Source: Cyanidioschyzon merolae | Taxonomy: Eukaryota | Strand: one strand, 5' to 3' | Assembly: GCA_000091205.1 (NCBI GenBank) | Contig: AP006484.2 | Length of the DNA: 64,000 nt | Shown here: piece by piece, positions 3,174 to 63,394 of the stretch | Layout: each line of letters begins with the position of its first letter | Numbering within the stretch: position 1 is the stretch's first letter | The notes under the pieces: model-generated | Databases searched by the model: none | The model's input: the letters and a program-made list of their open reading frames with translations, nothing else | What the model was told of the DNA's origin: nothing | Position numbers and translations under genes: made by a program

Positions 3174-3872
3174 GAGTGGGCAGCAGAGCGCGCTTCAGCG
3201 TAACCTGCGTGGACGCTCACGGCATCCAGCTCTGTCGAGCGCTGTTTGCTCGCTGGTCACGAAACGCTCGAGCGCTTGCGCCTTACGGCGACTCGCGGGT
3301 CTCGAGCTTCGGTAGTCACTGTGATAGCGTTCAGACAAAAACCTGATGAAAAACTTGCACACCGATCTGGTCGAAGCGGAGAAGCTCAGCGGCGTTATGA
3401 GGGAGAGGAATCCCGTCTGTAAAGTCAGGTACGATGCGGATGGTGAGCCATTCTGGTCTTTCAAGTAAATTTTATTGCACCATTGCTGCAGTGTATAGCC
3501 GGAGATCGAAACCACGATGCAACGTACCGTATCGAAAACGAACAGACACGAACTTTTACATGGTAACGAGATAACAATTTCGTTCGACCTGTGCGGTAAA
3601 CGTTAGAGGGGAAAGCTTTCCGAATCGTCGAAAGTTTGCGTTCAGAGCGAAAGGTCCCTAGAACTGTACGAGTCTGCAGGGCTAGTGCTTCATGCTCTCA
3701 CAAGTGGCTGGTGCTTTGGCGAGACGTAAGCAAATCGTCCGCAACAAAGGTTATTCTGGGACTAGGAGGGGGTAGGCTGTGTCGGGGCGTCGCCCTGGTC
3801 GCAGTGGACTCCTAGTACATCGCTTCGGGCTACAGGCAGTAGGTCTGTCTCCGCAGCTTCCTGGCTCCCGGC

Positions 3873-4085
3873 ATGCTTATGTACTTCGACCCTCTGTCCG
3901 GTGAGCCACGCCACGCGGAGATGCCCGCAGTGGTATGGCAACGCCGTACAGTGTCCTTGATGCATCCGCTCCAGCGGCATAACTGCTATTACGAATGCAG
4001 CAGGGGAGGTACTCGGTGCAAGATAGAACGTATGGAACAACCAGTACATCCGAAAGGAAGTATACACAATGGGAATTGCAGCTAG
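3873..4085 (+). CDS. Small conserved ORF, family 1 copy A (70 aa), hypothetical
   Basis: The 70-aa ORF has a same-length paralogue at 20695-20907. Residues are conserved along the full length (M..DP..AVWQ..MH..QR..CS.GGTR..I.R..P..PKGS..N..C). Several codon differences are synonymous (gac/gat, cct/ccc, ggg/gga). Confidence 0.3.
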   Translation: MLMYFDPLSGEPRHAEMPAVVWQRRTVSLMHPLQRHNCYYECSRGGTRCKIERMEQPVHPKGSIHNGNCS

Positions 4086-4138
4086 GGTGCAGCATGATAG
4101 ACACTTTCCCCAAAGCCAATACCCATGCATTCCGCATC

Positions 4139-4179
4139 CTGGAATCCAAGGTCAACGTAAACGTTCTGTCATCGGCAAA
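4139..4179 (+). promoter_or_regulatory. Conserved ~40-nt motif copy A (ctggaatccaaggtcaacgtaaacgttctgtcatcggcaaa). Candidate cis-element upstream of the bromodomain gene.
   Basis: The same motif recurs at 20957-20996 and 63355-63394, each 190-480 bp upstream of a plus-strand gene and in the same orientation. Confidence 0.3.
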
Positions 4180-4200
4180 TAATCCGTTGCGGTCTTATCC

Positions 4201-4627
4201 ATCCTGTCTATGATATCCAATATTATACGTTTTCAGAATCTTCCTCGATGCAGCGTGTCCATAGAGCTCACTGCCATCCTGTCTATAATGTCCAATATTA
4301 ATCGTTTTCAGAACCTTCCTCGTTGCAGCGTGTCGATGGCGCTCACTGCCATCCTGTCTATAATGTCCAATATTATCCCTATTCAGAACCTTCCTGAATG
4401 CAGCGTGTCGATGGCGCTCACTGCCACCCTGTCTATAATATCCAATATTATCCCTATTCAGAATCTTCCTCGATGCAGCGTGTCGATGGCGCTCACTGCC
4501 ATCCTGTCTATAATATCCAATATTATCCCTATTCAGAATCTTCCTCGATGCAGCGTGTCGATGGCGCTCACTGCCATCCTGTCTATAATATCCAATATTA
4601 TCCCTATTCAGAACCTTCCTCGATGCA
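4201..4627. repeat. 75-bp tandem minisatellite, about 5.7 copies
   Basis: The unit atcctgtctataatatccaatattatccctattcagaatcttcctcgatgcagcgtgtcgatggcgctcactgcc repeats head to tail. The unit length is a multiple of 3, so ORFs stay open on both strands. Each unit contains two ATGs. Confidence 0.95.
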
Positions 4628-6632
4628 AGTCCCCGCGCCATTCCCGCATACTCCGCTGCGCCCTCTGGTTCGTATTTGCGACGTGCAGCGCACCAGTTCC
4701 ACCTGGATGCGTCGTACCCGCCAGCATGCACCCTTTGCTGGTAACAGTATATCCTATAGCGCTCGGGAAGATGACGGTTTCCCCGATAGAGAGGATCCCG
4801 GCGATCTCGCCCTCCCGGACGACAGCTGGTCGGCGACGGGCGACGACACCGAGTCCAGTGCAGCGACGACTCGGCGCCAGCGGGTAACGCGGCGGCGAGG
4901 TCGGGCTTCGTCTCCGAGCACCGACACCAGTGAGCCTGCGCGTCAACGACAGCGACGCTCGCGCACCTCTCACATCAGTGTCGGTGACGAGTCCGGACAA
5001 CGACCGACTATCCGGACGCGCTCGGCATCGTCGCTAGAAGCAGGCGGCGTGCCCCGAGCCACTTCATCTGATCAGGATACGTTTCGGAATACCGTGGCTA
5101 TTCTCATTGAGCAGGTACGGCAGCATGATCGTTATGGGTTCTTCTGTGCCCCGGTTGATCCGGAGGAGGCGCCTGACTATCACGAAGTGATCCCAGAGCC
5201 GATGGATCTCGGTACCATGCAGAGGAAGCTCGAGACAGGCAAATATCGGCGCCTCGACGAAGTTGAGCGTGACCTAGATCTTATCTGGCGCAACTGTTTC
5301 ACATATAATCCAACAAATAGCATTTACTACCGCGAGGCGGCACGAATGCAAAAGTGGGCGCTGAAACGGGTCCAGTGGGCGCGTCAGCGACTCTGCGGCA
5401 TTACGGGAGCGCCCAGTCCCGCCGAAGGACAAAGCTTCAGTACGTCAACGCATTCTCGTGATGAAAAGGTACAGCACACCCATTCGAGGATGGTGAAAGG
5501 CGTATCGCGTGGGTCCGCGGTGGCTCTGGACTCGGCACCGCGGATGACGGTACGACTCCAGACAGAACGTCATCGGGACCCGGCTGCAGTGCCCGGCACG
5601 AGCTCGGAGCTGCCTACCGCAACCGAAACTGAAGGCAAACCGAAACCCGTTGCCGAAATGGATGTTGTTCTGGATGAGGCGCTGGACCCAGAGGCATCGT
5701 ATGCGGTGGCAGCGCAGGACCCTGGCGCCTTTATCGAGCGCGTATGGCGAGCGTTCGTGACTCGCCAAGAGCGCTTGCGTATCGAGAAGGAGCACGAACG
5801 ACTGTATCACTATCCGCGTCACAGTTCGGAGGGCGAGCGTGCTGCTGCTGACCTAGCCAGGACGATGCTTTCGCAATGGCTCGGGAAAACGATCAAACGG
5901 GCTCCGAACGATGCGGAGAAATATTTGCTGGAAATTCTTTCCGCTGCAGAGCTACCCGCCGAAACTCTCCAGCGAATGGCAACAGCATTCACGAGTCAGC
6001 AGCAGAACGGAGCAACTGCAGCAGCATCTGTTGAGGAAAACCCGTCTTTGAAGTCGAGGCCTACAGTCGGACGTGGTACACATGCAGCCGCTTCGCATGA
6101 CGATGCCCAGACCCGAGGAGCGAGTGCTTCAGCAACGGACGACTCGCCCGAGACATCAAAGGACGCGTTCATCGCCTCGCGTTGGTATGCCTTGCGACGC
6201 TCTCTTGCAGCGCTCCGGTTGGCCCAGATACAGAACGCACCCCTTTCCGAGCAACTCCGCCGCTATGATACGGTGCTCGCGCTCCTAGCACGCCAGTTGG
6301 AGACCATCCCGCCACGATTGCTCTTAGCCGAGGGTGGAGTCGAGAGCATCCGCGCATTTGCGCAGCGCCTTGTCCAATATGAAGATTCTCGTGCCGAAGA
6401 CGCAACGCCAAATGCTGAGAGTTCTGGACAAACACCGATGGCGAGTGATCCAGATGCGACGCAGCCGCAAAAGGGTGCTACAGATGGCCATAGCGTCGGT
6501 CATCACCCGGCAGCGACACCAGGAGCCGCTCATGCAAACGATGGGGGCGCTCAGACGGATCGCCCGCATGACATCAAAGTCGACGGCGTTTTTTCTGCGG
6601 GGAACGCAACTATGCTCAGACCGCAGGTTTAG
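4398..6632 (+). CDS. Bromodomain-containing protein (744-aa ORF). True start uncertain: ORF-initial ATG at 4398 lies inside repeat unit 3; the 4623 ATG (partial unit 6) or a later ATG is also possible.
   Basis: Bromodomain signature FFCAPVDPEEAPDYHEVIPEPMDLGTMQRKLETGKYRRLDEVERDLDLIWRNCFTYNPTNSIYYREAARM. The first ~230 nt of the ORF are tandem repeat, encoding MQRVDGAHCHPVYNIQYYPYSESSS three times. Confidence 0.75.
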   Translation: MQRVDGAHCHPVYNIQYYPYSESSSMQRVDGAHCHPVYNIQYYPYSESSSMQRVDGAHCHPVYNIQYYPYSEPSSMQVPAPFPHTPLRPLVRICDVQRTSSTWMRRTRQHAPFAGNSISYSAREDDGFPDREDPGDLALPDDSWSATGDDTESSAATTRRQRVTRRRGRASSPSTDTSEPARQRQRRSRTSHISVGDESGQRPTIRTRSASSLEAGGVPRATSSDQDTFRNTVAILIEQVRQHDRYGFFCAPVDPEEAPDYHEVIPEPMDLGTMQRKLETGKYRRLDEVERDLDLIWRNCFTYNPTNSIYYREAARMQKWALKRVQWARQRLCGITGAPSPAEGQSFSTSTHSRDEKVQHTHSRMVKGVSRGSAVALDSAPRMTVRLQTERHRDPAAVPGTSSELPTATETEGKPKPVAEMDVVLDEALDPEASYAVAAQDPGAFIERVWRAFVTRQERLRIEKEHERLYHYPRHSSEGERAAADLARTMLSQWLGKTIKRAPNDAEKYLLEILSAAELPAETLQRMATAFTSQQQNGATAAASVEENPSLKSRPTVGRGTHAAASHDDAQTRGASASATDDSPETSKDAFIASRWYALRRSLAALRLAQIQNAPLSEQLRRYDTVLALLARQLETIPPRLLLAEGGVESIRAFAQRLVQYEDSRAEDATPNAESSGQTPMASDPDATQPQKGATDGHSVGHHPAATPGAAHANDGGAQTDRPHDIKVDGVFSAGNATMLRPQV

Positions 6633-9600
6633 GGAAGCGCGGAAAAATGTCGCCAATTCGTGCATTCGCTTTCCTGAGGCGTAACGTTTGTCGCCCAACG
6701 CGCTTCGTGATCGGCAGTGATGGCTCCTCACTTCACCAGATACGTCTCTGAAAGCCGCATGACTCACGATAAACGCCTTGTTTGCTTCCGAAGAGTTGCG
6801 AGCGGCACTTGTGTAGCACCGAGGCGGCGTCCATGTGCGAATGCTTTCAGCGACACGCGCCGGCTTGCTACTGTGTCCGAAGCTCATTGCGCAGCTGCGG
6901 TGGTTTCGTGAACGTCACCACCTAGACGCGCGTGGCAAGTGCGCTGGAGGTGTCGTGGAGGTCCCTTTGGTTATCGCCGTTGTGTTTGCTGGCGAAGCAG
7001 ATGGATGAACCGAGGATTGCCCGCTGTCTGGTGGGTATGCTGGGGCTCCACCGCGCTTCGGCATCGGAACGCTGATGGAGAACATTGCACTGAAACCGCT
7101 TCCAAGAAAGACACGGCGTCATCGGACTCCAACATGGAAAGGCACCGACACGCTGGGAAGACTAACCGGATTGAAACCGCTTCCACGAGAGATGCGGCCC
7201 CGTCCATGACTGTCTTTGGGGAACTCTCCATATGGGCAAGTCCTCACTGAACAGGACACCTACGCAAATATACTCTGATGACGAGCTCGCCATATGTCAT
7301 GCGTGGTCGGATCCAGTAACACCATTGCCCTCTGGATGCCGGTTCAACATCCTTGCGCCCCAATAGAAGACCAGATATGGACAGGGAATAGACTCCGGGT
7401 GTACATCCACGGCAGAAAACTCGGATGTGCACGCTAAAGCTGGGGTCTCTCGTATGCGTTATCATCAACACCAGCCGTTGCAGGCATTCTTCGTTGGATA
7501 CTTGCTCATCCTCCACTGTCCTCGGGTTTCAATACGCCGGTCGCGACTGCTCCCGGAGGTCCGTTGTCAGCGGTCGAAACGTGTTCATTGCTGGGAGTGA
7601 GTCCCGATCTCTCTGCTTCCGCTTGTTATTGTGGAGTTTCATGTACACGTAAAAGTCGCGATCTGCGTTTCGCTTCCCGTTGTTGTCTTCTTCCTGTACA
7701 GCCTCGTCGTGCACATCGCAACGGTGAAACTTGACTGTGGTCAGGTGCTTCCAAGAGTCGGCTACACACCATGCTCCGAAGGCGGAGCTGTATCGCGTGA
7801 ACGCTTGGTTCATCGCTCGACTCGGGCGCTCGAAGGGAACAAGAGGCCCCGCTCAATGTCGTAATCCGGTTTCACGCCAGATACCATACCCGACGATCCG
7901 GGGCTTTTTCTTCCAGGTATTATTGTCGCCGAGTAGTCTGTCTGCTGCACAAGTAGATGCAGGCGGTTCCATTCGGCAGAGGATTTGTGGTGCGCGATAA
8001 TGCCCACCATGAAACATGTACCGGAAGCAGCATCCAGTTTGGAGAAGAATCCGAAAATCTTGGATCCGTCTACGCTTGCTTCGTGGAAACCGGTGACGCG
8101 CTCTCCACTGGAAGCGAATGTTGCGGTGGCTAAATTACGAGTCCAAGACTTTTTTCCATGCAAACAGAAGAGACTCTGCACTCAACCAGCATATCCGGTT
8201 AGAGGGATCGTGTCGCTGCTGCATTCAGTTTCGCGGATGGCCATCGGAAAGCCTAGGATTTGTATTTCGAACGGATTCCTTTCATGGATGTCGAAAATAA
8301 GGGGTTTTTCGACATGAGCTTGCACGCAAGCAGTCAAGTAACGACGTCTACCGTATTGATTGCCGCCTATCCAGCGGCGTTGATCGCCACACACATACAT
8401 ACACACACACGAGTTGCCTTGAAAGAGAAAGATCGAAACGTTAAACACAGCGTAATTCGAGCATGCTACGTGTAACGAAAACAGAATAATGGAGGCTTGA
8501 ACATATGACCTGGAAGAGAATGTCAGTTGTTGAACGAACCCGTATTCAAGTTCGTCGCAGATCATCTTTATTCCGATCACGGAACGTATCCCAGTGGTAA
8601 AAGTTCGACACTGCATTTTGTGAAACACGTCCAGGAATCTCCATAAAAGTACCACTATATTTGCATCCGGCAGCATTGAGTACTGCACGTCGACTGTCCA
8701 CGCTGCACATTTATGAACAATTTCGGAACGAAAAACGAATACGGCGGGATGAGGTCGAGCAGTTCGGCGTTCCTTGTGCATCTGACACTTGTTTTATGAT
8801 TGCGTGACAAGACGCGAGACTTTGCACCACCTGGTCCTGGTTTATGATGTAGTATTCGTCTTACAAGCAACGTGAGCAACCTCCTATCCTGGAGACCACA
8901 CCATCACGCTATTGAATATTCGAACATGCACTGGAAGGTATACTCTTCAACGTCTTCATTGTTTGAAGCTCAGTACTAGGCGAGTAAAGTCTCTGGCTGT
9001 GGAGCGCAAGACACAGAGTTCCGGTGTCAGTGAATCGCTGGCCATCGCCTTGCTCTCGGTGCTGGCCTCAGGAGTACACGCGTACGCTCAGCGATACTGT
9101 CAAATATCAAACGCTGATCACGGAATGCAATGATGGACTGCTCTGGCTACCATGGATCATTATCATGATCATTGGGTCAATGGTTCCTGAAAAAACCGCA
9201 CAATAGATATCGCTGAACTTGCATGCGATCGAGTCTCCTATGAATTCCTTGAATAGACCGAATACACACGAAATACATTTCTCTATCCCGCGAAACGAGC
9301 ACCCATGCGACGATTCCAAGGACTTGTTCGGTAAACGAAAGCACACACACACACACATACACACGGAATGCCTTTTATGTCGTGCTGAACTGGCCTGTAA
9401 TCGGGCTCGAAGGGAACAAGCTCCCCGATGAGGTTATCGTCTAGGCGACCTCGACTCTCGTGCAGCCGGGTTCGCCCATGAAACCAGTGGATAAAACCCC
9501 CGTCGACGCACGGAACTATCAACGAGATGACAGCACCGGCTTTATCATGAAGACACCGTCTCATGGCATATGCTCGCCAGGGACTGCGCGTTCACTCCGC

Positions 9601-9674: not shown

Positions 9675-12446
9675 TCACGACATCGACGACGAAGCGTTCG
9701 GTCTGCCCGGTGCATTCAAGGGATCCCCGCTCGCGCCGCCTGCGCCTTGCGAGTTCTTCTGTACGCGTGAGGTGTGACGCCACAAATTCGGAGGCCGCTG
9801 CCGCTTATATTTGACCCAGAAGAGGCCACAGGCGTTGCAGAGCCGCTGCTCCTTGTTCTCTCCCTGACGCCACCCCGGTGTCTCTGTCGTACCGCAGTTG
9901 GCACAGCTCAGGGGCATCTCGGGTGTCGCGCTTTTAGCCCAGGTTGCACTGGATGACGGGCGCATGCCCTTCAGCGCAGAGCTCACCGCAACTTTCAAGT
10001 TGCCTGCACTCGCGGACGTTCTTGGTATCGCTGTTCGTCCTGTGGATGCCGGGGCAGCAACCCGGCCTAAACCGTCAAGCGGGCGTTGCATCGCGGCCGT
10101 CAACGGGTGCAGTGGTCTGCTGTGTACCAGAGCTTGGGCAGACGACGTCGATGTGGTCGTTATCGCCCCCGCTGGCGCTACTTTGCCAGGCATTGCCCGG
10201 GCGAGGGTCTCCTCGTAGGACCCGTCCATAGCCGCAGCAACAAGCCGTCTGGGTAACGCTGCGGCACCGGCCGTGGACGCCTGTTCCGTCACCTGAATCA
10301 TCGACTCTAAATAGGGGATACGCTTCCCGCGCGTATTCGTGCGTTCCCATAGATAGTCTCGAAGTGCGCGCAGCTCTGCAGCAGCCACTCCGTAGGGCAA
10401 GTCTTCGCGCAACGAGTCCAAAGGCACCGCTTCGACCTGTTCAGCAAGCTCCGGATCCAAGACAGTATCCAGTAACCAGTCTAGGTCGAGACCGTCGTGT
10501 TGCAGTTGCTGTACTTTGGCACGGAACGCTCCATAACATCGCTCAAATTGTGCTAAGCGAGCTTCCTGCTCATCTTCAAGCTTTCTCTCCCAGGCAAGCA
10601 CATCATTTTTCCACTGTTGAAGTAGTCGCTCGTGCTCCTTCTCCGGTGATAGCAGCTCATCCACGATTCGATGCGCCATGAGGCCAGCATCCGTCACATA
10701 GCGACGCAACGAGTTTGCGTAAGCATCCAAGGCTAAAAAGGTGCGTCCCTGCAGAGGTCGACAGGGATTCGCCCTGTACAGACTCGCTGCTCCGACCGAA
10801 TCTCCGTGCAGATGCTCCTCATGAGGGCATTGTGAACGCGACGATTCCTTGGTTGCCTGATCTGTTGGGCGCACCGTGAACGGCGCTGTCGTTATCGACG
10901 TAAGCGGACGCTCTCGAAGCGACCATCCGGGCCGTTTCCGCGAGATCTGACTCAGCAGGTGCCGAAACGAAACAGCCGAACGAGGCGCTGGTCCAGCCAC
11001 CAGACCAGTATTCGTATCCTTCAACGCAGCAGAGCGCGAATAGCGTTGCCGCAGCCACTCTTTGGCCATCACCTCTTGGAGATGCAGATACGAGGAGGAG
11101 ATCCGACTGAGGAGAGACGGCCACCATCGATGCTGCTGTTGCACGAGTTCGAGCCAGAGCGGCTGGCGAGCGCCACCGCTCCCTGAACTAGATTCATTTT
11201 TGGCATAACGAGGCCCGCCGGCACCCGCTTCCGTCCCTTGAACATCATTCACCGCAGACGCTTCGCTCCGCGTCAGGTTGGTTTGGTTCCCGCCATCGCT
11301 TTGAGAGGCAATGTTTCGCGAGGCTACGGTAACTGATCCCTGCTCGAGAAGTGAGATGCGAATCGCTAGCATCGACGGCTGACCAGTCGTAGAATGCTCA
11401 CGGTCCGCAGGCACGAGTGCGGTTGAGGCGGCAGTTCGACGAGGCTGCTCCGCTGACGACTCCCCCGGACTCGAGTCCTCGCTAGGAAGACAGCTCGCTC
11501 GAAAGCGCACCGTCGATGGCCACGTGCTCGTATCGGAACGTTCAGGGACTACCGAAGCACGTTGGGTATACGAGCTGACTGCAGCGTCGCCAGTTAACTG
11601 CCGCTCATTGCTCCCGACTGGAGCCTGTTGTGACTCATTCAAGGATGAAGCATCACTTTTGGCATGTGCTCGAGGGCGACTCTGCCGTGGATGCGAACGC
11701 AGAAAGCGCTCGACGGCTTCTCGCAAGGTCGGCTCGTTCCGCAGGCGAAGAAGCCGTTCTCGGGCATTTTTCCAGGCTTTCCGTGCTTCCTGTTTACAAG
11801 CCTTGCCAGCTTGATAAAAAATGGAGTCTGGTGGGTTAAACTGGAAACAGTTACGCCAGACCAAGTCGCAGTCATGCAGCACTTGGCTGAAGCTCGTATA
11901 CGCCGCGCTCTCGATCCGCTGTCTAATCGTTCCCAGGTCCATGGGCTCTTTGATGATATCTAGATAGGCGGGAACGGCTACCGGGTCGACGGGCTCCGCA
12001 AATATTCGATGTATGTCACGCCTTTGGATGCCATCGATCGCTTTCAACAGAATGGCTTTAATGGAAGGCCAAGCGTTTCCGAGTTCTCGCTCGGAAATCG
12101 TCACGACAGCACTGCGGGGACGTTTCCGCTGTCGAGTTCGCTCGACGGTGCCGCTGTTGATCCTCTTGGACCTGGACTCGCCAGGCGGTTCGTAGGATGT
12201 GTTTGTCTCTGTCAAGTTCGATGCAGATAATCCTCCAAATGAAACATTCGGTGTCGCTTGAGGCCCGTGTGCCATCGATGCATCTTGGTTGCCAGCTACC
12301 GACAGTGTACGGTTTTCGCTCCCCAGCTCGGTAGCACTGGGCACAATTGTTTGTGTGGCACCAGTTGCAGCTGTACTTGTCGTTGCGTCGACTTTGGTAG
12401 TCGAGTGCGTTGCGCTTCCAGAGATCTCCATCAAAACCCACGACAC
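9675..12446 (-). CDS. Bromodomain plus GATA-type zinc-finger protein (923 aa). Paralogue of the 4398-6632 bromodomain gene.
   Basis: Bromodomain: IFAEPVDPVAVPAYLDIIKEPMDLGTIRQRIESAAYTSFSQVLHDCDLVWRNCFQFNPPDSIFYQAGKACK. C-terminal GATA finger: CANCGTTETPGWRQGENKEQRLCNACGLFWVKYKRQRP. Confidence 0.8.
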   Translation of the reverse strand: MSWVLMEISGSATHSTTKVDATTSTAATGATQTIVPSATELGSENRTLSVAGNQDASMAHGPQATPNVSFGGLSASNLTETNTSYEPPGESRSKRINSGTVERTRQRKRPRSAVVTISERELGNAWPSIKAILLKAIDGIQRRDIHRIFAEPVDPVAVPAYLDIIKEPMDLGTIRQRIESAAYTSFSQVLHDCDLVWRNCFQFNPPDSIFYQAGKACKQEARKAWKNARERLLRLRNEPTLREAVERFLRSHPRQSRPRAHAKSDASSLNESQQAPVGSNERQLTGDAAVSSYTQRASVVPERSDTSTWPSTVRFRASCLPSEDSSPGESSAEQPRRTAASTALVPADREHSTTGQPSMLAIRISLLEQGSVTVASRNIASQSDGGNQTNLTRSEASAVNDVQGTEAGAGGPRYAKNESSSGSGGARQPLWLELVQQQHRWWPSLLSRISSSYLHLQEVMAKEWLRQRYSRSAALKDTNTGLVAGPAPRSAVSFRHLLSQISRKRPGWSLRERPLTSITTAPFTVRPTDQATKESSRSQCPHEEHLHGDSVGAASLYRANPCRPLQGRTFLALDAYANSLRRYVTDAGLMAHRIVDELLSPEKEHERLLQQWKNDVLAWERKLEDEQEARLAQFERCYGAFRAKVQQLQHDGLDLDWLLDTVLDPELAEQVEAVPLDSLREDLPYGVAAAELRALRDYLWERTNTRGKRIPYLESMIQVTEQASTAGAAALPRRLVAAAMDGSYEETLARAMPGKVAPAGAITTTSTSSAQALVHSRPLHPLTAAMQRPLDGLGRVAAPASTGRTAIPRTSASAGNLKVAVSSALKGMRPSSSATWAKSATPEMPLSCANCGTTETPGWRQGENKEQRLCNACGLFWVKYKRQRPPNLWRHTSRVQKNSQGAGGASGDPLNAPGRPNASSSMS

Positions 12447-12937
12447 TCAGGATAGTACAGTCTTGTGTGGCTTGCTTCGAGCGCTCTCGCGCCCACTGTT
12501 CAGCGTTCGGGCTGGAGAGGCGGCGCGGCTCAGGTGTGATGCCCCGAGGTCGCCACGCTGCCTCTCCCTGCAGGAGAGTAACTCCGTTCGAAGGGTTTCG
12601 AGCCTTCAATTGCCCTGCAAATCAAAAGCAAAGTCCTGCCCCGCGCCAGAGACGCTGCAGTGAAACGTCTGCGCCGCGTCCTGGAAGCTCACCGGCGGGA
12701 GACACCGAGCGCACGCGCGTTGGCGCCTAGTCCAACGATGAACCCTAATCTTGTTCGACGCTGGCGAAGAACTCTCCAACACTTTAGCGCTCCAGCAAGC
12801 GAACTTGCCGCCGTTTGCCTCTGAAAGAAACGTCCTAGTAGTGAGCTCGTGGAGCACGATTGCTATGAAAGTCGACGTTGGCCAGCACGACTGATACGGA
12901 TCCAGCCTCGCGTTCGGGTCAGCCAAGTAACCCGGAT

Positions 12938-13101
12938 GCGATAAACTGTATACATAGGGATGAAATGGGACAGAATTCTCCTCTTCGTCACCTGAACGCC
13001 AACTTGATTGCTAAACGATGCGATAAACTGTATACATAGGGATGAAATGGGACAGAACTCTCCTCTTCTTCACCTGAACGCCAACTTGATTGCTAAACGA
13101 T
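12938..13101. repeat. 82-bp direct tandem duplication (2 copies, 2 mismatches) in the divergent promoter between the GATA-bromodomain gene and the WD40 gene
   Basis: gcgataaactgtatacatagggatgaaatgggacagaattctcctcttcgtcacctgaacgccaacttgattgctaaacgat is repeated immediately. Confidence 0.95.
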
Positions 13102-20140: not shown

Positions 20141-20694
20141 TACGAAAGCCTTCCGTCTCTCCCACTCTTCATTTTTTCCTCACTCAGCTTCATCTTCGCA
20201 TTGCGTTCGAGTTCTCGGTCCAGATACTCGAAATACCGCAGGATGAGATAATAGTATCTTTCCGTATCTTTTTCCAAGTATGATATCTTTTCTGCTGGAT
20301 TCGCCAGCCCCAAGTCTGCGCGATGCTCTTGTCTAACTGCACGGATCTCAGAAGCTTCATTATTTCTCCTGTGTCATGTCTTCTTGTCGACAAATTCGAT
20401 CTTTCCTTCGTTCTTACTATCGTTCGTGATGCCATTGATGATGGCCGATCTCTTTCCTCTGGAGAGAGACCTCGGTACCGTGCAAACACGGTGCGTATCA
20501 TGATATGTTTCAGGTTCACAATCACACTGAGCTTCAGGCTCATGAGGTACTGCATCGCCCCGTCACAGTTGATTCTGGGACTCGGAGCGGGTAGCCTGCG
20601 TCTTGGCGTCGAGCTGGTTCATTTGGAATCCCAGGACCTCGTTTCGTGCAGCCACATCAAGTATGTCTGTCTGCACAACTTGTAGGCTCTCAGA

Positions 20695-20907
20695 ATGATC
20701 ATCACCCCCGATCCCGTATTGAATGCATCAAGCCTCCAGCCGACGTCTGCAGCGGTATGGCAAAGCTATTTTGCCGCTGTGATGCATTGGCATCAGCGGT
20801 GTAGGCGCTACGGCGGGTGCAGCAACGGAGGTACTCGGCGCATGATACAACGTACAAAACCACCAATAGATCCGAAAGGAAGTGAAACTAATGCAACTTG
20901 CAGGTAG
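20695..20907 (+). CDS. Small conserved ORF, family 1 copy B (70 aa), hypothetical
   Basis: Paralogue of 3873-4085, with the same length and conserved residues. Confidence 0.3.
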   Translation: MIITPDPVLNASSLQPTSAAVWQSYFAAVMHWHQRCRRYGGCSNGGTRRMIQRTKPPIDPKGSETNATCR

Positions 20908-20956
20908 AGTGAAGAATAATGAGCGTTTTCATTGATTTCAATATCCATCCTGCAAA

Positions 20957-20996
20957 CTGGAATCCCAGGTCAACGCAACGATATTGTCATCGAAAG
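20957..20996 (+). promoter_or_regulatory. Conserved ~40-nt motif copy B, 170 bp upstream of the DJ-1/PfpI gene
   Basis: ctggaatcccaggtcaacgcaacgatattgtcatcgaaaga aligns with copies A and C. Confidence 0.3.
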
Positions 20997-21162
20997 AAAT
21001 CGGACGACCAGCGTAATATGCGCCGCCGCCATGGTCGACACGCATTCGGGCCTTTTTTGATCAATCCTATAATTATCTTGAATAATTTGTAGGAAGTAGA
21101 TCAAACGATCCTAGGGCGCGCCATGTGCCGCTCCGGAAAAGGCGGGTATTTCAAAATTCCCC

Positions 21163-56267: not shown

Positions 56268-56535
56268 GCATGTATGAACGTTGCATATACGTGAAAGAGA
56301 CAAATTGTTGGACGGGTGTGCCTGTGACCGCGAGGCAGGCCTTTGCGAGCAAAAAGCGAATAAAGGATAGCGTCGAATAGGCTGCGGAAGCAACGCGGCC
56401 GTATCGCGAACATGCTTCACGGTATCGCAGTCATGGAATGCACAGCATACAATCTACGCAGCGGCGTACCACGGATCAAAGATCGAATTCTCACTCAACT
56501 TGTCCCACGCATGCGGTTCTTATTCACCAATGCCA

Positions 56536-57994
56536 AAAAATGGAACTTGTGAAGGTCACCATTAGCCAAGTACAACCGTTCCCACTTTCTATAGACGAAA
56601 TTCCAGCCTCACTGGATACCTGATCGCAGCATACCAGTCCCGTGATTCGGACGGGAATCCAATGCCTTCTCTCCCGGCAATTGACTTTCGCATCGCATGT
56701 CGCTAGCCTTCCAGCGCACTGCCTGCACACACGGAGTACTGAACGGCTCTTTTCGATACTCGCTCAACACAGCGACGCTGGACGCTCCGCAGGCACAAGA
56801 CGTTTCCCGATGCTGATCGAGGCGCTCGAGTCCGCTGCATCGCGTGCTTGCGTGCTTTGTTCTTGCCGGTGGATTCACAGCCAGGCAAGCCGCTCGCCTT
56901 CGATCGTCTCGCCATGTGATGATCAACCAGCGTACCGAGCGCCAGCTCGTGTATCTGGCTCTGTTTCTGCACGCTTCCTCTTCACGTGTAGTTGCGAGCC
57001 CCAGTGCCTGTGATGCGTGTACGCCGTCCAGAACGCTTCGCTGGGAATCACACAGAATCGCTTCCTGTTCTCGATAAAGTGCCCAGGGCGTCGAGACCGA
57101 TCCCGAAGGCGTCCTTCCACCTGTCGCGATGCCTGCTGGCGTCCACCAAGCCCGACGCCAGACGAGACCGAGTAATGGCGACGCTGAGCCGCCCCATCAT
57201 GTCTCCGCTCAGGTCTCTGGCTTCGTCCTGTCCCACTGCTTGGCCGCTCTTGTGTTCGGGGCATCGACGCTGTCGATGAGCAGTGCAGAAGCGTATGAGA
57301 TGAAGAAGCCGCATCGTTTGCCCGACGGAGGATGGTGTTTCATACAATTCTATCGACTTGGCGATTTGTAGGCGACCGCACGCGTGACCTGTCGCGGGGT
57401 CCGCTGTTGTCGCTGGTCATGTTCGATTCTTCTTCACGAGCCGCAGTCTTGGCAGGCATCGGGTACCCTTGTACAGTTCTGCAATGCAGTCCGAACGAGG
57501 TCTCATCGCGTGAGACAAGGGCTCGTCGCTCCTGCTACAAGCTGTTGCGTTTCAGTACGAAGTGAGTCATGTTTTGTTCGGCGCGCGACACGCTCGCCCA
57601 GAAGCACGTTTTTCCGTTGGCCACTCACATCCCTTTATCACAGCTCGTATAAACGGTACGGAAACACGAGACCCTTTGGAGGCTTTGGTAGCATTTGGCA
57701 GCGTATGTGTGGAGTAGAATGGACTGAGGGGACCGACGTCGTGCAAGCAGAGTCTGATACTTTCTTTTTCGGATACATGACGTTCTGAACGAGGACTAGG
57801 AAGAGAATAGCCTATGCACCTGCCGACAGCAGAGTGAGTGACTTGACGAGACCGCGGTCCGTTTTTCGCGAGCGATCAGTAAAAGTATCGAGTCTTTTTG
57901 CAACCTTTCTCCTTGTTACAAGACGTATTCGTTTTATTGAAAGCTTTCGATGAAAATCGAACGAAAACAAGAGCGGTTTGCCGGTACTAGTGTT
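56536..57994. repeat. Inverted repeat, left arm (1459 bp). About 99% identical to the reverse complement of 60314-61772.
   Basis: Mirror-image ORF pairs with identical translations lie at coordinates summing to 118308 (57384..57788 with 60520..60924; 56609..56926 with the 3' end of 61133..61699). Boundaries were read directly at 56536/61772 (outer) and 57994/60314 (inner). Confidence 0.95.
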
Positions 57995-60313: not shown

Positions 60314-61772
60314 AACACTAGTACCGGCAAACCGCTCTTGTTTTCGTTCGATTTTCATCGAAAGCTTTCAATAAAACGAATACGTCTTGTAACAAGGAGA
60401 AAGGTTGCAAAAAGACTCGATACTTTTACTGATCGCTCGCGAAAAACGGACCGCGGTCTCGTCAAGTCACTCACTCTGCTGTCGGCAGGTGCATAGGCTA
60501 TTCTCTTCCTAGTCCTCGTTCAGAACGTCATGTATCCGAAAAAGAAAGTATCCGACTCTGCTTGCACGACGTCGGTCCCCTCAGTCCATTCTACTCCACA
60601 CATACGCTGCCAAATGCTACCAAAGCCTCCAAAGGGTCTCGTGTTTCCGTACCGTTTATACGAGCTGTGATAAAGGGATGTGAGTGGCCAACGGAAAAAC
60701 GTGCTTCTGGGCGAGCGTGTCGCGCGCCGAACAAAACATGACTCACTTCGTACTGAAACGCAACAGCTTGTAGCAGGAGCGACGAGCCCTTGTCTCACGC
60801 GATGAGACCTCGTTCGGACTGCATTGCAGAACTGTACAAGGGTACCCGATGCCTGCCAAGACTGCGGCTCGTGAAGAAGAATCGAACATGACCAGCGACA
60901 ACAGCGGACCCCGCGACAGGTCACGCGTGCGGTCGCCTACAAATCGCCAAGTCGATAGAATTGTATGAAACACCATCCTCCGTCGGGCAAACGATGCGGC
61001 TTCTTCATCTCATACGCTTCTGCACTGCTCATCGACAGCGTCGATGCCCCGAACACAAGAGCGGCCAAGCAACGGGACAGGACGAAGCCAGAGACCTGAG
61101 CGGAGACCTGATGGGGCGGCTCGGCGTCGCCATTGCTCGGTCTCGTCTGGCGTCGGGCTTGGTGGACGCCAGCAGGCATCACGACAGGTGGAAGGACGCC
61201 TTCGGGATCGGTCTCGACGCCCTGGGCACTTTATCGAGAACAGGAACCGATTCTGTGTGATTCCCAGCGAAGCGTTCTGGACGGCGTACACGCATCACAC
61301 GCACTGGGGCTCGCAACTACACGTGAAGAGGAAGCGTGCAGAAACAGAGCCAGATACACGAGCTGGCGCTCGGTACGCTGGTTGATCATCACATGGCGAG
61401 ACGATCGAAGGCGAGCGGCTTGCCTTGCTGTGAATCCACCGGCAAGAACAAAGCACGCAAGCACGCGATGCAGCGGACTCGAGCGCCTCGATCAGCATCG
61501 GGAAACGTCTTGTGCCTGCGGAGCGTCCAGCGTCGCTGTGTTGAGCGAGTATCGAAAAGAGCCGTTCAGTACTCCGTGTGTGCAGGCAGTGCGCTGGAAG
61601 GCTAGCGACATGCGATGCGAAAGTCAATTGCCAGGAGAGAAGGCATTGGATTCCCGTCCGAATCACGGGACTGGTATGCTGCGATCAGGTATCCAGTGAG
61701 GCTGGAATTTCGTCTATAGAAAGTGGGAACGGTTGTACTTGGCTAATGGTGACCTTCACAAGTTCCATTTTT
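60314..61772. repeat. Inverted repeat, right arm (1459 bp)
   Basis: Reverse complement of 56536-57994 with about 10-15 substitutions. Most cluster in the segment corresponding to 57000-57260. Confidence 0.95.
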
Positions 61773-63354
61773 CGGGACTCGTGAGATTATCCGCCAAAAG
61801 GGACTGCTGCCGCCGATGCGATGCGCTCTCGAGCCATGCACGTCAGCGAAGCGCGCGTTCCCTAGGCCCCACATTGCATCCGGGGTTTCTTTCTCTAAAC
61901 GCTTTGTCAAGGACATAAACCTCTCCGTTTATCTGTCTGGGCTCGACATACGAAGGAGATTTCGTCACCATTTGAAGCAAGAGACTGAAGCGCTATCGAG
62001 GTCGCCTCGGCGCATGCACTTCCAGGGCGCTCCGGCAGGGTCGGGGTCTCCGACCCGCTCAATGGTTTCACTGCCCAGGGTGTTTTCTTCTAGTAGAGAC
62101 CACGCTCAAGGTGTATTGTTTTGGATCTTTATTTTACTGATTGCCACTTTGGAGCGCTTGCGGTGCCTCGGTCGAGATCTTCGCCGACGCTGGCGAACCG
62201 CGCCGCTCAAGCACACGCAACTGCAATCGTTTCCGTCGCACGTCGCACTCCTCGGTAACGAAGCAGCGCTTGCGTCGATCACGAAACACCTAATAGGACG
62301 CGGTGTTCAGAGAGTTACTGTGTTTGATCCGGGCAAAAGGGAGCAGCGAGGGCGCCTTGGCAGGGCAAGCACTCCAGCGAGGCTTGTTCTGGGCCCTGCA
62401 GACGCCACACGTCGCCGTATTGTGGCCATGACGGTAGACCAGCGCGAGCGCATCAGCGATAACAGAGCCTTCTACGATGAACCAGACTTGCTACTCACCT
62501 TGGATGGGCATCTTCACGGGTATCCGGCCACGGCGCTGCGCGTTACGCACCTCCACCGGCTTGCGAATCCGAGTTTATGGGCGGTAGATGAGGCGCTTCG
62601 TCTCTACTTGACAACTGAACGTCGCCAAGGTCGATGAGAGGGCACCTGACTCGATCGCCAGCGCATCGTGCTGCCCGCAAGGTACCTGGCTATGCACTGC
62701 AAAGTATGAAACAACGTTTACTCAGCTTGGGGCTTCAGTGTCGTGTCACGAAGATTTTCACGATGAGCTTGCACGGATCACGAAAAAAGGGCGAACAATG
62801 CGCAATCACTGCGCCGAATTCTGGAATCCCTCGACCATGAACAAGGGCGACCTCCAGGCCCACCTATCAATGCAAAAGCTACAGGTCACCTGTCGTGCTC
62901 TGAATTCATATACAAGCGAGAAGCATTCTACGTGCGAGGGCATCAGCGCCCTAAGTATTCTTTAGCTATTGCTTGAATACAGAGGTCGCCGGGGAGCGCG
63001 CTAGCGAGGTCGCTGGACATCGCCATGCGGTGCAAGCCTCCTTCTACAATACGAATTCGATGCAGCTTCGCACACTCTGATGGAAGTGCACATGCTGCCG
63101 GAGATCGCACCTTCAACCTTACCTCTTCTGCGAACGCAACCATGTTTTATAAATCCGGGAGAAGCGTCCCTGAAAACAACGGAGGCTTGATCAATGCATC
63201 GACGCAGCGAACGTCGCACGGAGACAGGACGGTATGACGCCAAGGCCTCCAAAGACGTGAGCTACGGGGAACGCACGACGCTGTTCGGGACAGCGCTCGT
63301 TGTGCTGGTCTGTGCTCCGACATGCTGCGCACACAGAATACCCATCCCGCATTC

Positions 63355-63394
63355 TAGATTCCACGTACAACGTAAACGTGTTGTCATCGGAAAC
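63355..63394 (+). promoter_or_regulatory. Conserved ~40-nt motif copy C, about 320 bp upstream of the Mrt4 gene
   Basis: tagattccacgtacaacgtaaacgtgttgtcatcggaaaca aligns with copies A and B through the core CAACGYAAMCGW..TGTCATCGR. Confidence 0.3.

Follow-up and report, generated by a model that had tools for sequence, protein, structure and literature searches.

A 64,000-nucleotide stretch of the Cyanidioschyzon merolae genome (contig AP006484.2 of assembly GCA_000091205.1), here called the window, contains a tandem array of 75-bp units directly upstream of a gene for a bromodomain protein, and the annotated open reading frame (ORF) of that gene begins inside the array. Our analysis makes it likely that this array is a non-coding variable number tandem repeat (VNTR) and that translation of the gene starts downstream of it, at the ATG at position 4707. 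The array probably belongs to the proximal promoter and 5' leader and arose by tandem duplication of a core-promoter segment; that its units act as additional promoter copies is a more tentative proposal, drawn from sequence comparison. The window has a GC content of about 55% and carries long intron-free ORFs on both strands, in keeping with the C. merolae 10D genome. All positions given are those of the window.

Structure of the repeat array

A previous interpretation based on the letters of the DNA only (the sequence-only reading) had described a 75-bp minisatellite, and Tandem Repeats Finder confirmed it at 4199 to 4627 (+) with a period of 75, 5.7 copies (5.65), 93% matches, no indels and a score of 718. 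The 75-nt spacing was also recovered by a second repeat search of the window. The units are arranged head to tail and their length lies within the 10-100 bp range used to define such repeats. Full units in register start at 4199, 4274, 4349, 4424 and 4499; the fourth and fifth differ in a single base, while the first two are the most divergent. Every unit carries TATAATATCCAATATTAT as well as an AT-rich quasi-palindrome of the form TATAATAT-CCA-ATATTAT. The 75-bp unit is absent from the rest of the 64-kb window, and a 27-nt unit pattern searched in JGI metagenome contigs matched this locus only (three contigs). The array is a single-locus VNTR, or minisatellite.

The sequence-only reading had assigned an in-frame ATG to every unit, which holds for most of them. 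The first ATG (cgATGcagcg) is present in five of the six units, unit 2 having TTG at 4323, and the second (tcgATGgcgctc) in four of the five full units, unit 1 having CCATAGAGC at that place. It had also described both strands as open through the array. One plus frame and one minus frame indeed run through it (Table 1), so that both strands are open, but the annotated frame is closed by a TAA at 4299 and a TGA at 4395. The open plus frame contains ATGs in the context tcgATGgcg at 4336, 4411, 4486 and 4561, and nothing supports this frame (4210-4887) as a gene; the open minus frame is a by-product of the stop-free repeat unit.

The bromodomain gene probably starts downstream of the array

The annotated ORF is identical over all 744 aa (100%) to BAM78851.1/XP_005535137.1, listed as 'unknown bromodomain-containing protein' of C. 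merolae 10D on a record of 457,013 bp. It starts inside the array, as the sequence-only reading had stated, namely within the third unit. The bromodomain (PF00439) was found at aa 237-315 with an E-value of 7e-25 and 87.3 bits, compared to a gathering cut-off of 21.7; the Pfam scan of the N-terminal extension returned no match. This extension, which includes for example the peptide VDGAHCHPVYNIQYYPYSE, encodes the 25-aa module twice exactly and once with an S to P substitution (…SEPSS), thus the three copies claimed before are two identical ones and a variant. At 4398, the annotated start uses just the first ATG to follow the closest in-frame stop upstream, the TGA at 4395.

Only two close homologues were found outside C. 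merolae, a 540-aa protein from Cyanidiococcus yangmingshanensis (50% identity) and a 547-aa protein from related metagenomes (49%). Both orthologues (P0002 and P0003) begin at a methionine that aligns with M104 of the annotated protein, which corresponds to nt 4707 (MRRTRQH in C. merolae, MRRPRHQ and MQRYHRQ in the orthologues), and the repeat region is missing from both of them. At the Cyanidiococcus locus (L002), an in-frame TAG is located 111 nt upstream of the orthologous start with no ATG in between. The gene order TLDc(-), Bromo(+), Bromo-GATA(-), WD40(+) is common to C. merolae and the orthologue loci.

Variation between the repeat units was analyzed in 18 full and 6 partial units (24 in total) from six alleles. 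Twenty of the 75 positions are variable, and they are split 10:3:7 over codon positions 1, 2 and 3 of the annotated frame, showing no excess at third positions in this set. A coding repeat is expected to keep its frame intact in all alleles; here the frame is interrupted by the TAA at 4299, the TGA at 4395 and the ATG to TTG change at 4323, and the TAA and TTG unit variants of strain 10D are also present in allele L006. The leader behaves in a similar way: its 84 nt from 4623 to 4706 contain four variable sites among the six alleles, all at codon positions 1 or 2 and all non-synonymous (R>H, I>T, C>Y and T>A). The coding sequence (CDS) from 4707 onward (1926 nt) has 12 variable sites, seven of them at third positions. 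The density of variable sites is about eight times higher in the leader than in the CDS (Fisher p = 0.0035); in the intergenic DNA upstream, 10 of 1025 nt are variable. Coding constraint is lacking in the array.

We judge the array to be non-coding because of the start sites of the orthologues, the broken frame, the pattern of variation in the units and in the leader, and the ends of RNA-like contigs (see below). The real start is probably the ATG at 4707, yielding a protein of 641 aa; the 744-aa database entry would then be about 103 residues too long and a longest-ORF artefact, one that could arise only with a unit free of stops in that frame and a length of 75, a multiple of three.

RNA-like contigs have their 5' ends close to the 3' edge of the array

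Several metagenome contigs covering the gene resemble complementary DNA (cDNA). Contig L013 (JGI sample 3300050748) matches positions 4689-7683 and continues with ten A residues; since the genome reads TGTCTTC at this place, these are untemplated and represent a poly(A) tail. Contig L015 (sample 3300050387) spans 4580-7680, its 3' end lying 3 nt from the poly(A) site of L013, and contig L014 (sample 3300050377) has its 5' end at 4683. The cDNA-like status of these three contigs derives from the untemplated tail and the agreement between 3' ends, not from sample metadata. That C. merolae can dominate JGI poly-A metatranscriptomes is documented (PMC11662350), but the three sample numbers are not tied to these. 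A further contig, L016, has its 5' end at 4548, and it is uncertain whether it derives from DNA or RNA. An exact look-up of the 744-aa protein had no contig on record, leaving Logan and RNA-seq contigs of strain 10D itself outside the data.

DNA contigs, in contrast, run through the array (L006, L007 and L010) or break inside it (L001 and L008), and none of the clearly RNA-derived contigs holds a complete repeat unit. The cDNA-like 5' ends at 4683 and 4689 are located about 92-97 nt after the last CCAATAT motif of the array and the one at 4580 before it, contig ends being imprecise. The contigs differ in the upstream ATGs that they include: none in L013 and L014, the one at 4623 in L015, and those at 4548, 4561 and 4623 in L016. 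These data locate the transcription start roughly where the array ends on its 3' side, as a region and not as a mapped position, and not upstream of the annotated ATG. According to the sequence-only reading, a start downstream of 4627 would make the array promoter DNA rather than coding; two of the cDNA-like ends lie there, but another cDNA-like contig reaches 4580 and thus the last partial unit.

The bromodomain mRNA is implied to have a 3' untranslated region (UTR) of about 1.05 kb (6633-7683), which is long for so compact a genome. Gene callers put small ORFs of 55 aa (+) and 164 aa (-) inside it.

The 5' end of L013 carries a foreign, A-rich segment of 91 nt (positions 1-91 of the contig, …GAAAAGAAAGAAAGAAGAAAAGAAAAAAAAAAA) that is joined exactly after the genomic CAG at 4688. 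When tested as an upstream exon, this segment matched neither the window nor any of the fetched loci. A template-switch product or an assembly chimera that marks the 5' end of the mRNA is the most likely explanation; an exon outside the DNA examined is the formal alternative. Each full unit contains one copy of the heptamer TGCAGCG (ATGCAGCG), and the leader has a further one (GTGCAGCG at 4683). The base directly before it is where contigs L016 (4548) and L014 (4683) start, and L013 starts just after GCAG (4689). These contig starts might reflect an initiator-like start site, or they may be coincidence.

A CCAATAT motif is conserved in position upstream of the orthologous genes

Each unit contains the motif CCAATAT within its quasi-palindrome, with copies at 4217, 4292, 4367, 4442, 4517 and 4592, the last one 115 nt before the ATG at 4707. 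The 8-mer TCCAATAT is found six times in the array and once elsewhere in the 64 kb, compared to 0.8 expected. At the Cyanidiococcus locus, the sole CCAATAT in 13.6 kb is located 121 nt before the orthologous ATG and is followed by ATATATAG; at the second orthologous locus (L003), one of three CCAATAT copies lies 101 nt before the orthologous ATG and is preceded by AAATATATGT.

The motif was not brought into register when the three orthologous upstream regions were aligned with MAFFT, and conservation was therefore assessed with a distance-anchored k-mer test combined with shuffling. Every 7-mer of the last unit and the leader was sought at a similar distance (±25 nt) from the start in both orthologues. 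CCAATAT was the only 7-mer to pass, and any such 7-mer was obtained in just 6 of 5000 shuffles. In addition, 7-mers covering GCGCCCTCT are common to C. merolae and L002 at -47 to -49 and -63 to -65, respectively, with the order of the blocks kept. The TATA-like sequence with CCAATAT would thus be a candidate core-promoter element whose position is conserved across cyanidiophyte genera. Most simply, the 75-bp unit can be read as a duplicate of part of the gene's own proximal promoter, and the array as its tandem multiplication. A sigma-70 promoter and terminator scan, a bacterial approach unsuited to a eukaryote, was uninformative. Literature searches for a transcription-start map or a core-promoter description of C. 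merolae found nothing specific.

The copy number differs between C. merolae populations

To compare alleles, contigs of other C. merolae populations were inspected at the same locus. The array has 2.65 copies in L006 and L011 (58.9-kb contig), 3.65 copies in L007 (a 55-kb ENA contig) and 5.65 copies in 10D; L010 (72.7-kb contig) also has 5.65 copies, with the unit variants in a different order. At least 3.65 copies are present in L008 and L009 and at least 2.4 in L001, the contigs L001 and L008 ending inside the array. The array is retained in every C. merolae population sampled. The 75 nt directly 5' of the array are identical across all array-spanning contigs, and the flanks overall are about 99% identical. 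Thus, the copy number varies between natural C. merolae populations at one locus, as the sequence-only reading had anticipated, and spanning contigs with 2.65, 3.65 and 5.65 copies document it.

The expectation that such changes would preserve the frame was also borne out, the unit being 3 x 25 nt: in the array-spanning contigs the longest possible ORF has 669, 744 or 794 aa depending on the allele, which corresponds to steps of 25 aa. In a 90%-identity protein cluster of the same gene, calls of 641, 649, 669, 694, 719 and 744 aa are found. In the shorter alleles, unit-specific variants flank most of the junctions, which speaks against a simple collapse during assembly. At least two intact CCAATAT copies are present in every fully assembled allele.

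A duplicated promoter segment as the probable origin of the array

We propose that a 75-bp segment with the core-promoter element of the gene, the TATA-like AT run around CCAATAT, was tandemly duplicated. Copy number and unit sequence would later have changed, presumably by unequal exchange or replication slippage. Each unit would supply a further copy of the promoter element, the extra copies providing redundancy, and transcription driven by the intact copies nearest the 3' end would begin in the last unit or the leader, where the RNA-like 5' ends (4580-4689) are found. Additional copies may shift the choice of the start site or the level of expression. Expansion and contraction would alter how many promoter copies there are and how far they lie from upstream DNA, to which a dispersed element of about 450 nt belongs (end at 4197). 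If transcription occasionally began further upstream, the leader would contain AUGs, some in frame and others in the 4210-4887 frame that overlaps the true start. An origin of the array as a non-coding VNTR from the core promoter is what we regard as probable; the functional part, in which the copies work as promoters and copy number affects transcription start or expression, is best taken as a possibility.

Several observations weigh against this proposal. The copy numbers were read from short-read assemblies, in which near-identical units may be merged. The 5' ends of contigs are inexact markers of a transcription start, and repeats tend to interrupt assemblies. L015 (from 4580) and L016 (from 4548) include the in-frame ATG at 4623, L016 also the one at 4548, and some mRNAs may therefore carry upstream AUGs. 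Furthermore, the motif of the last unit is mutated in several alleles (CCACTAT in L007, L008 and L010; CTAATAT in L015 and L016). Such mutations fit redundancy of the motif and equally fit a dispensable motif.

The mutated motifs would also be in keeping with a neutral minisatellite that has no regulatory role, lies by chance between promoter and start codon and drifts freely in copy number, its CCAATAT similarity to the orthologues being coincidental or functionally irrelevant. The range of 2.65 to 5.65 copies with no visible constraint agrees with this, as do further tandem duplications with two copies of about 70-100 bp, located in intergenic DNA here and in L003, which suggest a general mutational process. 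A neutral array is nevertheless unlikely, since CCAATAT stands at -101 to -121 in two species whose intergenic DNA is otherwise unalignable, a position improbable by chance according to the shuffles; moreover, each fully assembled allele keeps two or more intact copies, and no sampled population has lost the array.

An alternative that we consider rather improbable places transcription starts upstream of or inside the array, which would then form a regulatory 5' UTR with multiple upstream AUGs and a copy number that tunes translation of the bromodomain protein. It could account for the ATGs included in L015 (4623) and L016 (4548, 4561 and 4623), for the presence of up to two ATGs per full unit, and for the 51-nt motif 5' of the array that is common to three gene-upstream regions. 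However, two cDNA-like contigs start downstream of every upstream ATG (4683 and 4689), and no RNA-like contig has a full unit, L016 with its uncertain origin excepted. Such a leader would have up to nine upstream AUGs, and one of their frames would overlap the CDS by 180 nt; hardly any translation would then be left for a gene that is conserved.

A bolder version, to which we give little credence, is a tandem-promoter cassette: each unit would be a working core promoter, and strains that differ in copy number and in which units are intact or mutated would use different start sites. In-frame upstream AUGs would then serve to translate transcripts initiated in the array into strain-specific modular N-terminal isoforms, or out-of-frame AUGs would damp translation. 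If true, the array would be an evolvable promoter-plus-N-terminus switch of a chromatin reader in one of the most reduced eukaryotic genomes.

The sequence-only reading had favored a coding minisatellite, in which the repeat adds real and variable 25-aa modules to the N-terminus of the bromodomain protein. The ORF is open from 4398, the unit is a multiple of three, GenBank uses the 4398 start and alleles differ by whole modules. Yet the orthologues do without the region and start at M104, stops and a lost ATG affect units 1-3 and allele L006, synonymous bias is absent from units and leader, two other frames are equally open, Pfam is empty in the extension, and the cDNA-like 5' ends at 4683 and 4689 lie beyond the modules. 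The claim that they are part of the protein is not supported by these findings, and a coding array is very improbable.

Finally, it is hardly plausible that the array is a terminal satellite borne by the adjacent dispersed, possibly mobile element instead of a promoter derivative: the element does end at 4197, with its 51-nt core 20 nt before the array, and is repeated in the window, but no array follows copy B (20564-21015) or copy C (63343-63393), the unit pattern was confined to this locus in the metagenome scan, and the unit motif is positionally homologous to orthologous promoters in species without the element.

Coordinates and further features of the window

Table 1. Features at the repeat locus and the bromodomain gene, with positions in the window.
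Feature	Position	Strand	Remarks
Dispersed element, about 450 nt	3745..4197	+	Ends directly before the array; paralogue at 20564-21015, 67% identity
Antisense open frame	4195..4731	-	178 aa; open across the whole array
75-bp minisatellite	4199..4627	+	Five full units and a 54-nt partial unit (4574-4627)
Second open plus frame	4210..4887	+	225 aa; spans the whole array; out-of-frame overlap with the 4707 start
TAA stop in the annotated frame	4299..4301	+	Unit 2; variant also in allele L006
TGA stop in the annotated frame	4395..4397	+	Directly precedes the annotated start at 4398 (ATG of unit 3)
Annotated ORF	4398..6632	+	744 aa; start in unit 3
Annotated N-terminal extension	4398..4706	+	103 codons, probably untranslated; in-frame ATGs at 4398, 4473, 4548 and 4623; proposed promoter and 5' leader DNA
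Last TATA-like quasi-palindrome copy	4584..4601	+	Contains CCAATAT; candidate core-promoter element
Unique leader between array and conserved start	4628..4706	+	Two cDNA-like 5' ends inside (4683 and 4689)
Bromodomain gene by conservation	4707..6632	+	641 aa and stop; starts with MRRTRQH
Poly(A) site of the bromodomain mRNA, probable	7680..7683	+	Ten A after 7683 in L013; end of L015 at 7680

The sequence-only reading had also noted that a small ORF and a conserved motif copy adjoin the array, and both are real: the ORF of 70 aa at 3873-4085 and the 51-nt motif at 4128-4178. They are parts of the dispersed element that precedes the array. The motif is the 3' core of this element (CATYCYGCA..CTGGAATCC..CAACGTAAACGT..TTGTCATCGG) and occurs in three copies, the others being located at 20946 and 63343-63393. 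All copies of the element are in plus orientation, each upstream of a plus-strand gene. The distance from the element to the bromodomain ATG is 529 nt (about 100 nt if the array is removed); the other copies are about 170-200 nt from a DJ-1/PfpI gene and about 250 nt from an Mrt4-like gene ('MPRSKRARR'). The paired 70-aa ORFs of the two longer copies (3873-4085 and 20695-20907) have an estimated 40% aa identity compared to 67% nt identity; being less alike as protein than as DNA, they make the conservation of the element look non-coding. An nhmmer search with the 450-nt element and the 51-nt core against the syntenic Cyanidiococcus loci gave nothing significant, and there was no Rfam match. 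Candidates for its identity are a shared promoter module, an RNA missing from the annotation and a repeat in decay.

Two-copy tandem duplications with units of 68-98 bp are present in intergenic DNA at 12935-13101 of the window and at 281-471, 4930-5066, 8442-8604 and 12105-12266 of L003. The one at 4930-5066 of L003 (69 x 2) lies in the same TLDc|Bromo intergenic region as the array and is unrelated to it in sequence. Those at 12935-13101 of the window (82 x 2) and 12105-12266 of L003 (83 x 2) both lie between Bromo-GATA and WD40, in equivalent intergenic DNA. The duplications point to a mutational process that recurs in these compact genomes and yields copies of about 70-100 bp in promoter regions.

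The bromodomain gene (4707-6632, +) has a convergent neighbour at 9675-12446 (-), in which a bromodomain is fused to a GATA zinc finger (PF00439 and PF00320); this arrangement is conserved in Cyanidiococcus. Further downstream, the window contains an inverted repeat with arms of 1471 nt each at 56524-57994 and 60314-61784, which are 99% complementary and 2319 nt apart.

Other assignments of the array were considered as well. No known RNA gene was found in or adjoining it by Rfam at gathering thresholds over the whole window or by ARAGORN for tRNAs, and an Rfam search by E-value on 3174-4710 returned only a chance-level match to a bacterial small RNA (E 0.83). Folding of array and leader as a structured RNA (z = -2.0) was dominated by a weak 7-bp AU hairpin per unit and was unconvincing. 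A centromere or origin was set aside without a dedicated test; the array is not markedly AT-rich and lies in a short divergent intergenic region. A previous description of this array, or of minisatellites in C. merolae, did not turn up in literature searches.

Significance and comparison with known systems

The alga is minimal and in wide use as a model, and the corrected N-terminus of this chromatin reader (641 instead of 744 aa) bears on tagging, knock-in and localisation experiments designed from the annotated start. The array itself is a VNTR marker of a size suitable for the polymerase chain reaction, with which C. merolae populations can be distinguished. The TATA-like/CCAATAT sequence at about -100 to -120 offers a candidate core-promoter motif, and the natural allelic series, with 2.65 to 5.65 copies and both intact and mutated motifs, is a test bed for the relation between promoter copy number and expression.

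Both components, the promoter minisatellite and the longest-ORF artefact, are of familiar types, and the feature is ordinary in kind. Tandem repeats in promoters have reportedly been studied in yeast (Vinces et al. 2009), and human examples of promoter VNTRs are the INS VNTR and the MAOA-uVNTR. Like these, the C. merolae array is arranged head to tail just upstream of a gene, is polymorphic between isolates and may have an effect on expression. Promoter tandem repeats are also a topic of PMC3516485. In contrast to the yeast and human cases, the unit is long (75 bp) and apparently a copy of the gene's own core-promoter segment, not a simple AT-rich or nucleosome-excluding tract, and for the array any effect on expression is inferred.

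In architecture, the array is similar to duplicated promoter or enhancer blocks of viruses, such as the 72-bp repeats of simian virus 40 (SV40), the 98-bp repeats of JC virus Mad-1 with a TATA box each and the 75-bp repeats of Moloney murine leukaemia virus (MLV). There, too, units of 70-100 bp carry promoter or enhancer motifs, and their number and arrangement vary between isolates. The array, however, belongs to a gene of the cell nucleus and is unrelated in sequence to the viral blocks; the analogy is an architectural one only.

Coding minisatellites are said to occur in cell-surface genes such as yeast FLO1 and the ALS family (reportedly Verstrepen et al. 2005). The array shares with them a unit that is a multiple of three, a frame that is kept upon expansion or contraction and a strain-dependent ORF length. 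It differs in that its units contain stops and lack synonymous bias, the orthologues start downstream and translation is unsupported. The annotated start, being the first ATG after a stop, resembles the longest-ORF over-extension known from automated annotation of intron-poor genomes. Unlike the usual case, the artefact was made and is modulated here by a polymorphic repeat, and the apparent protein length thus differs between strains.

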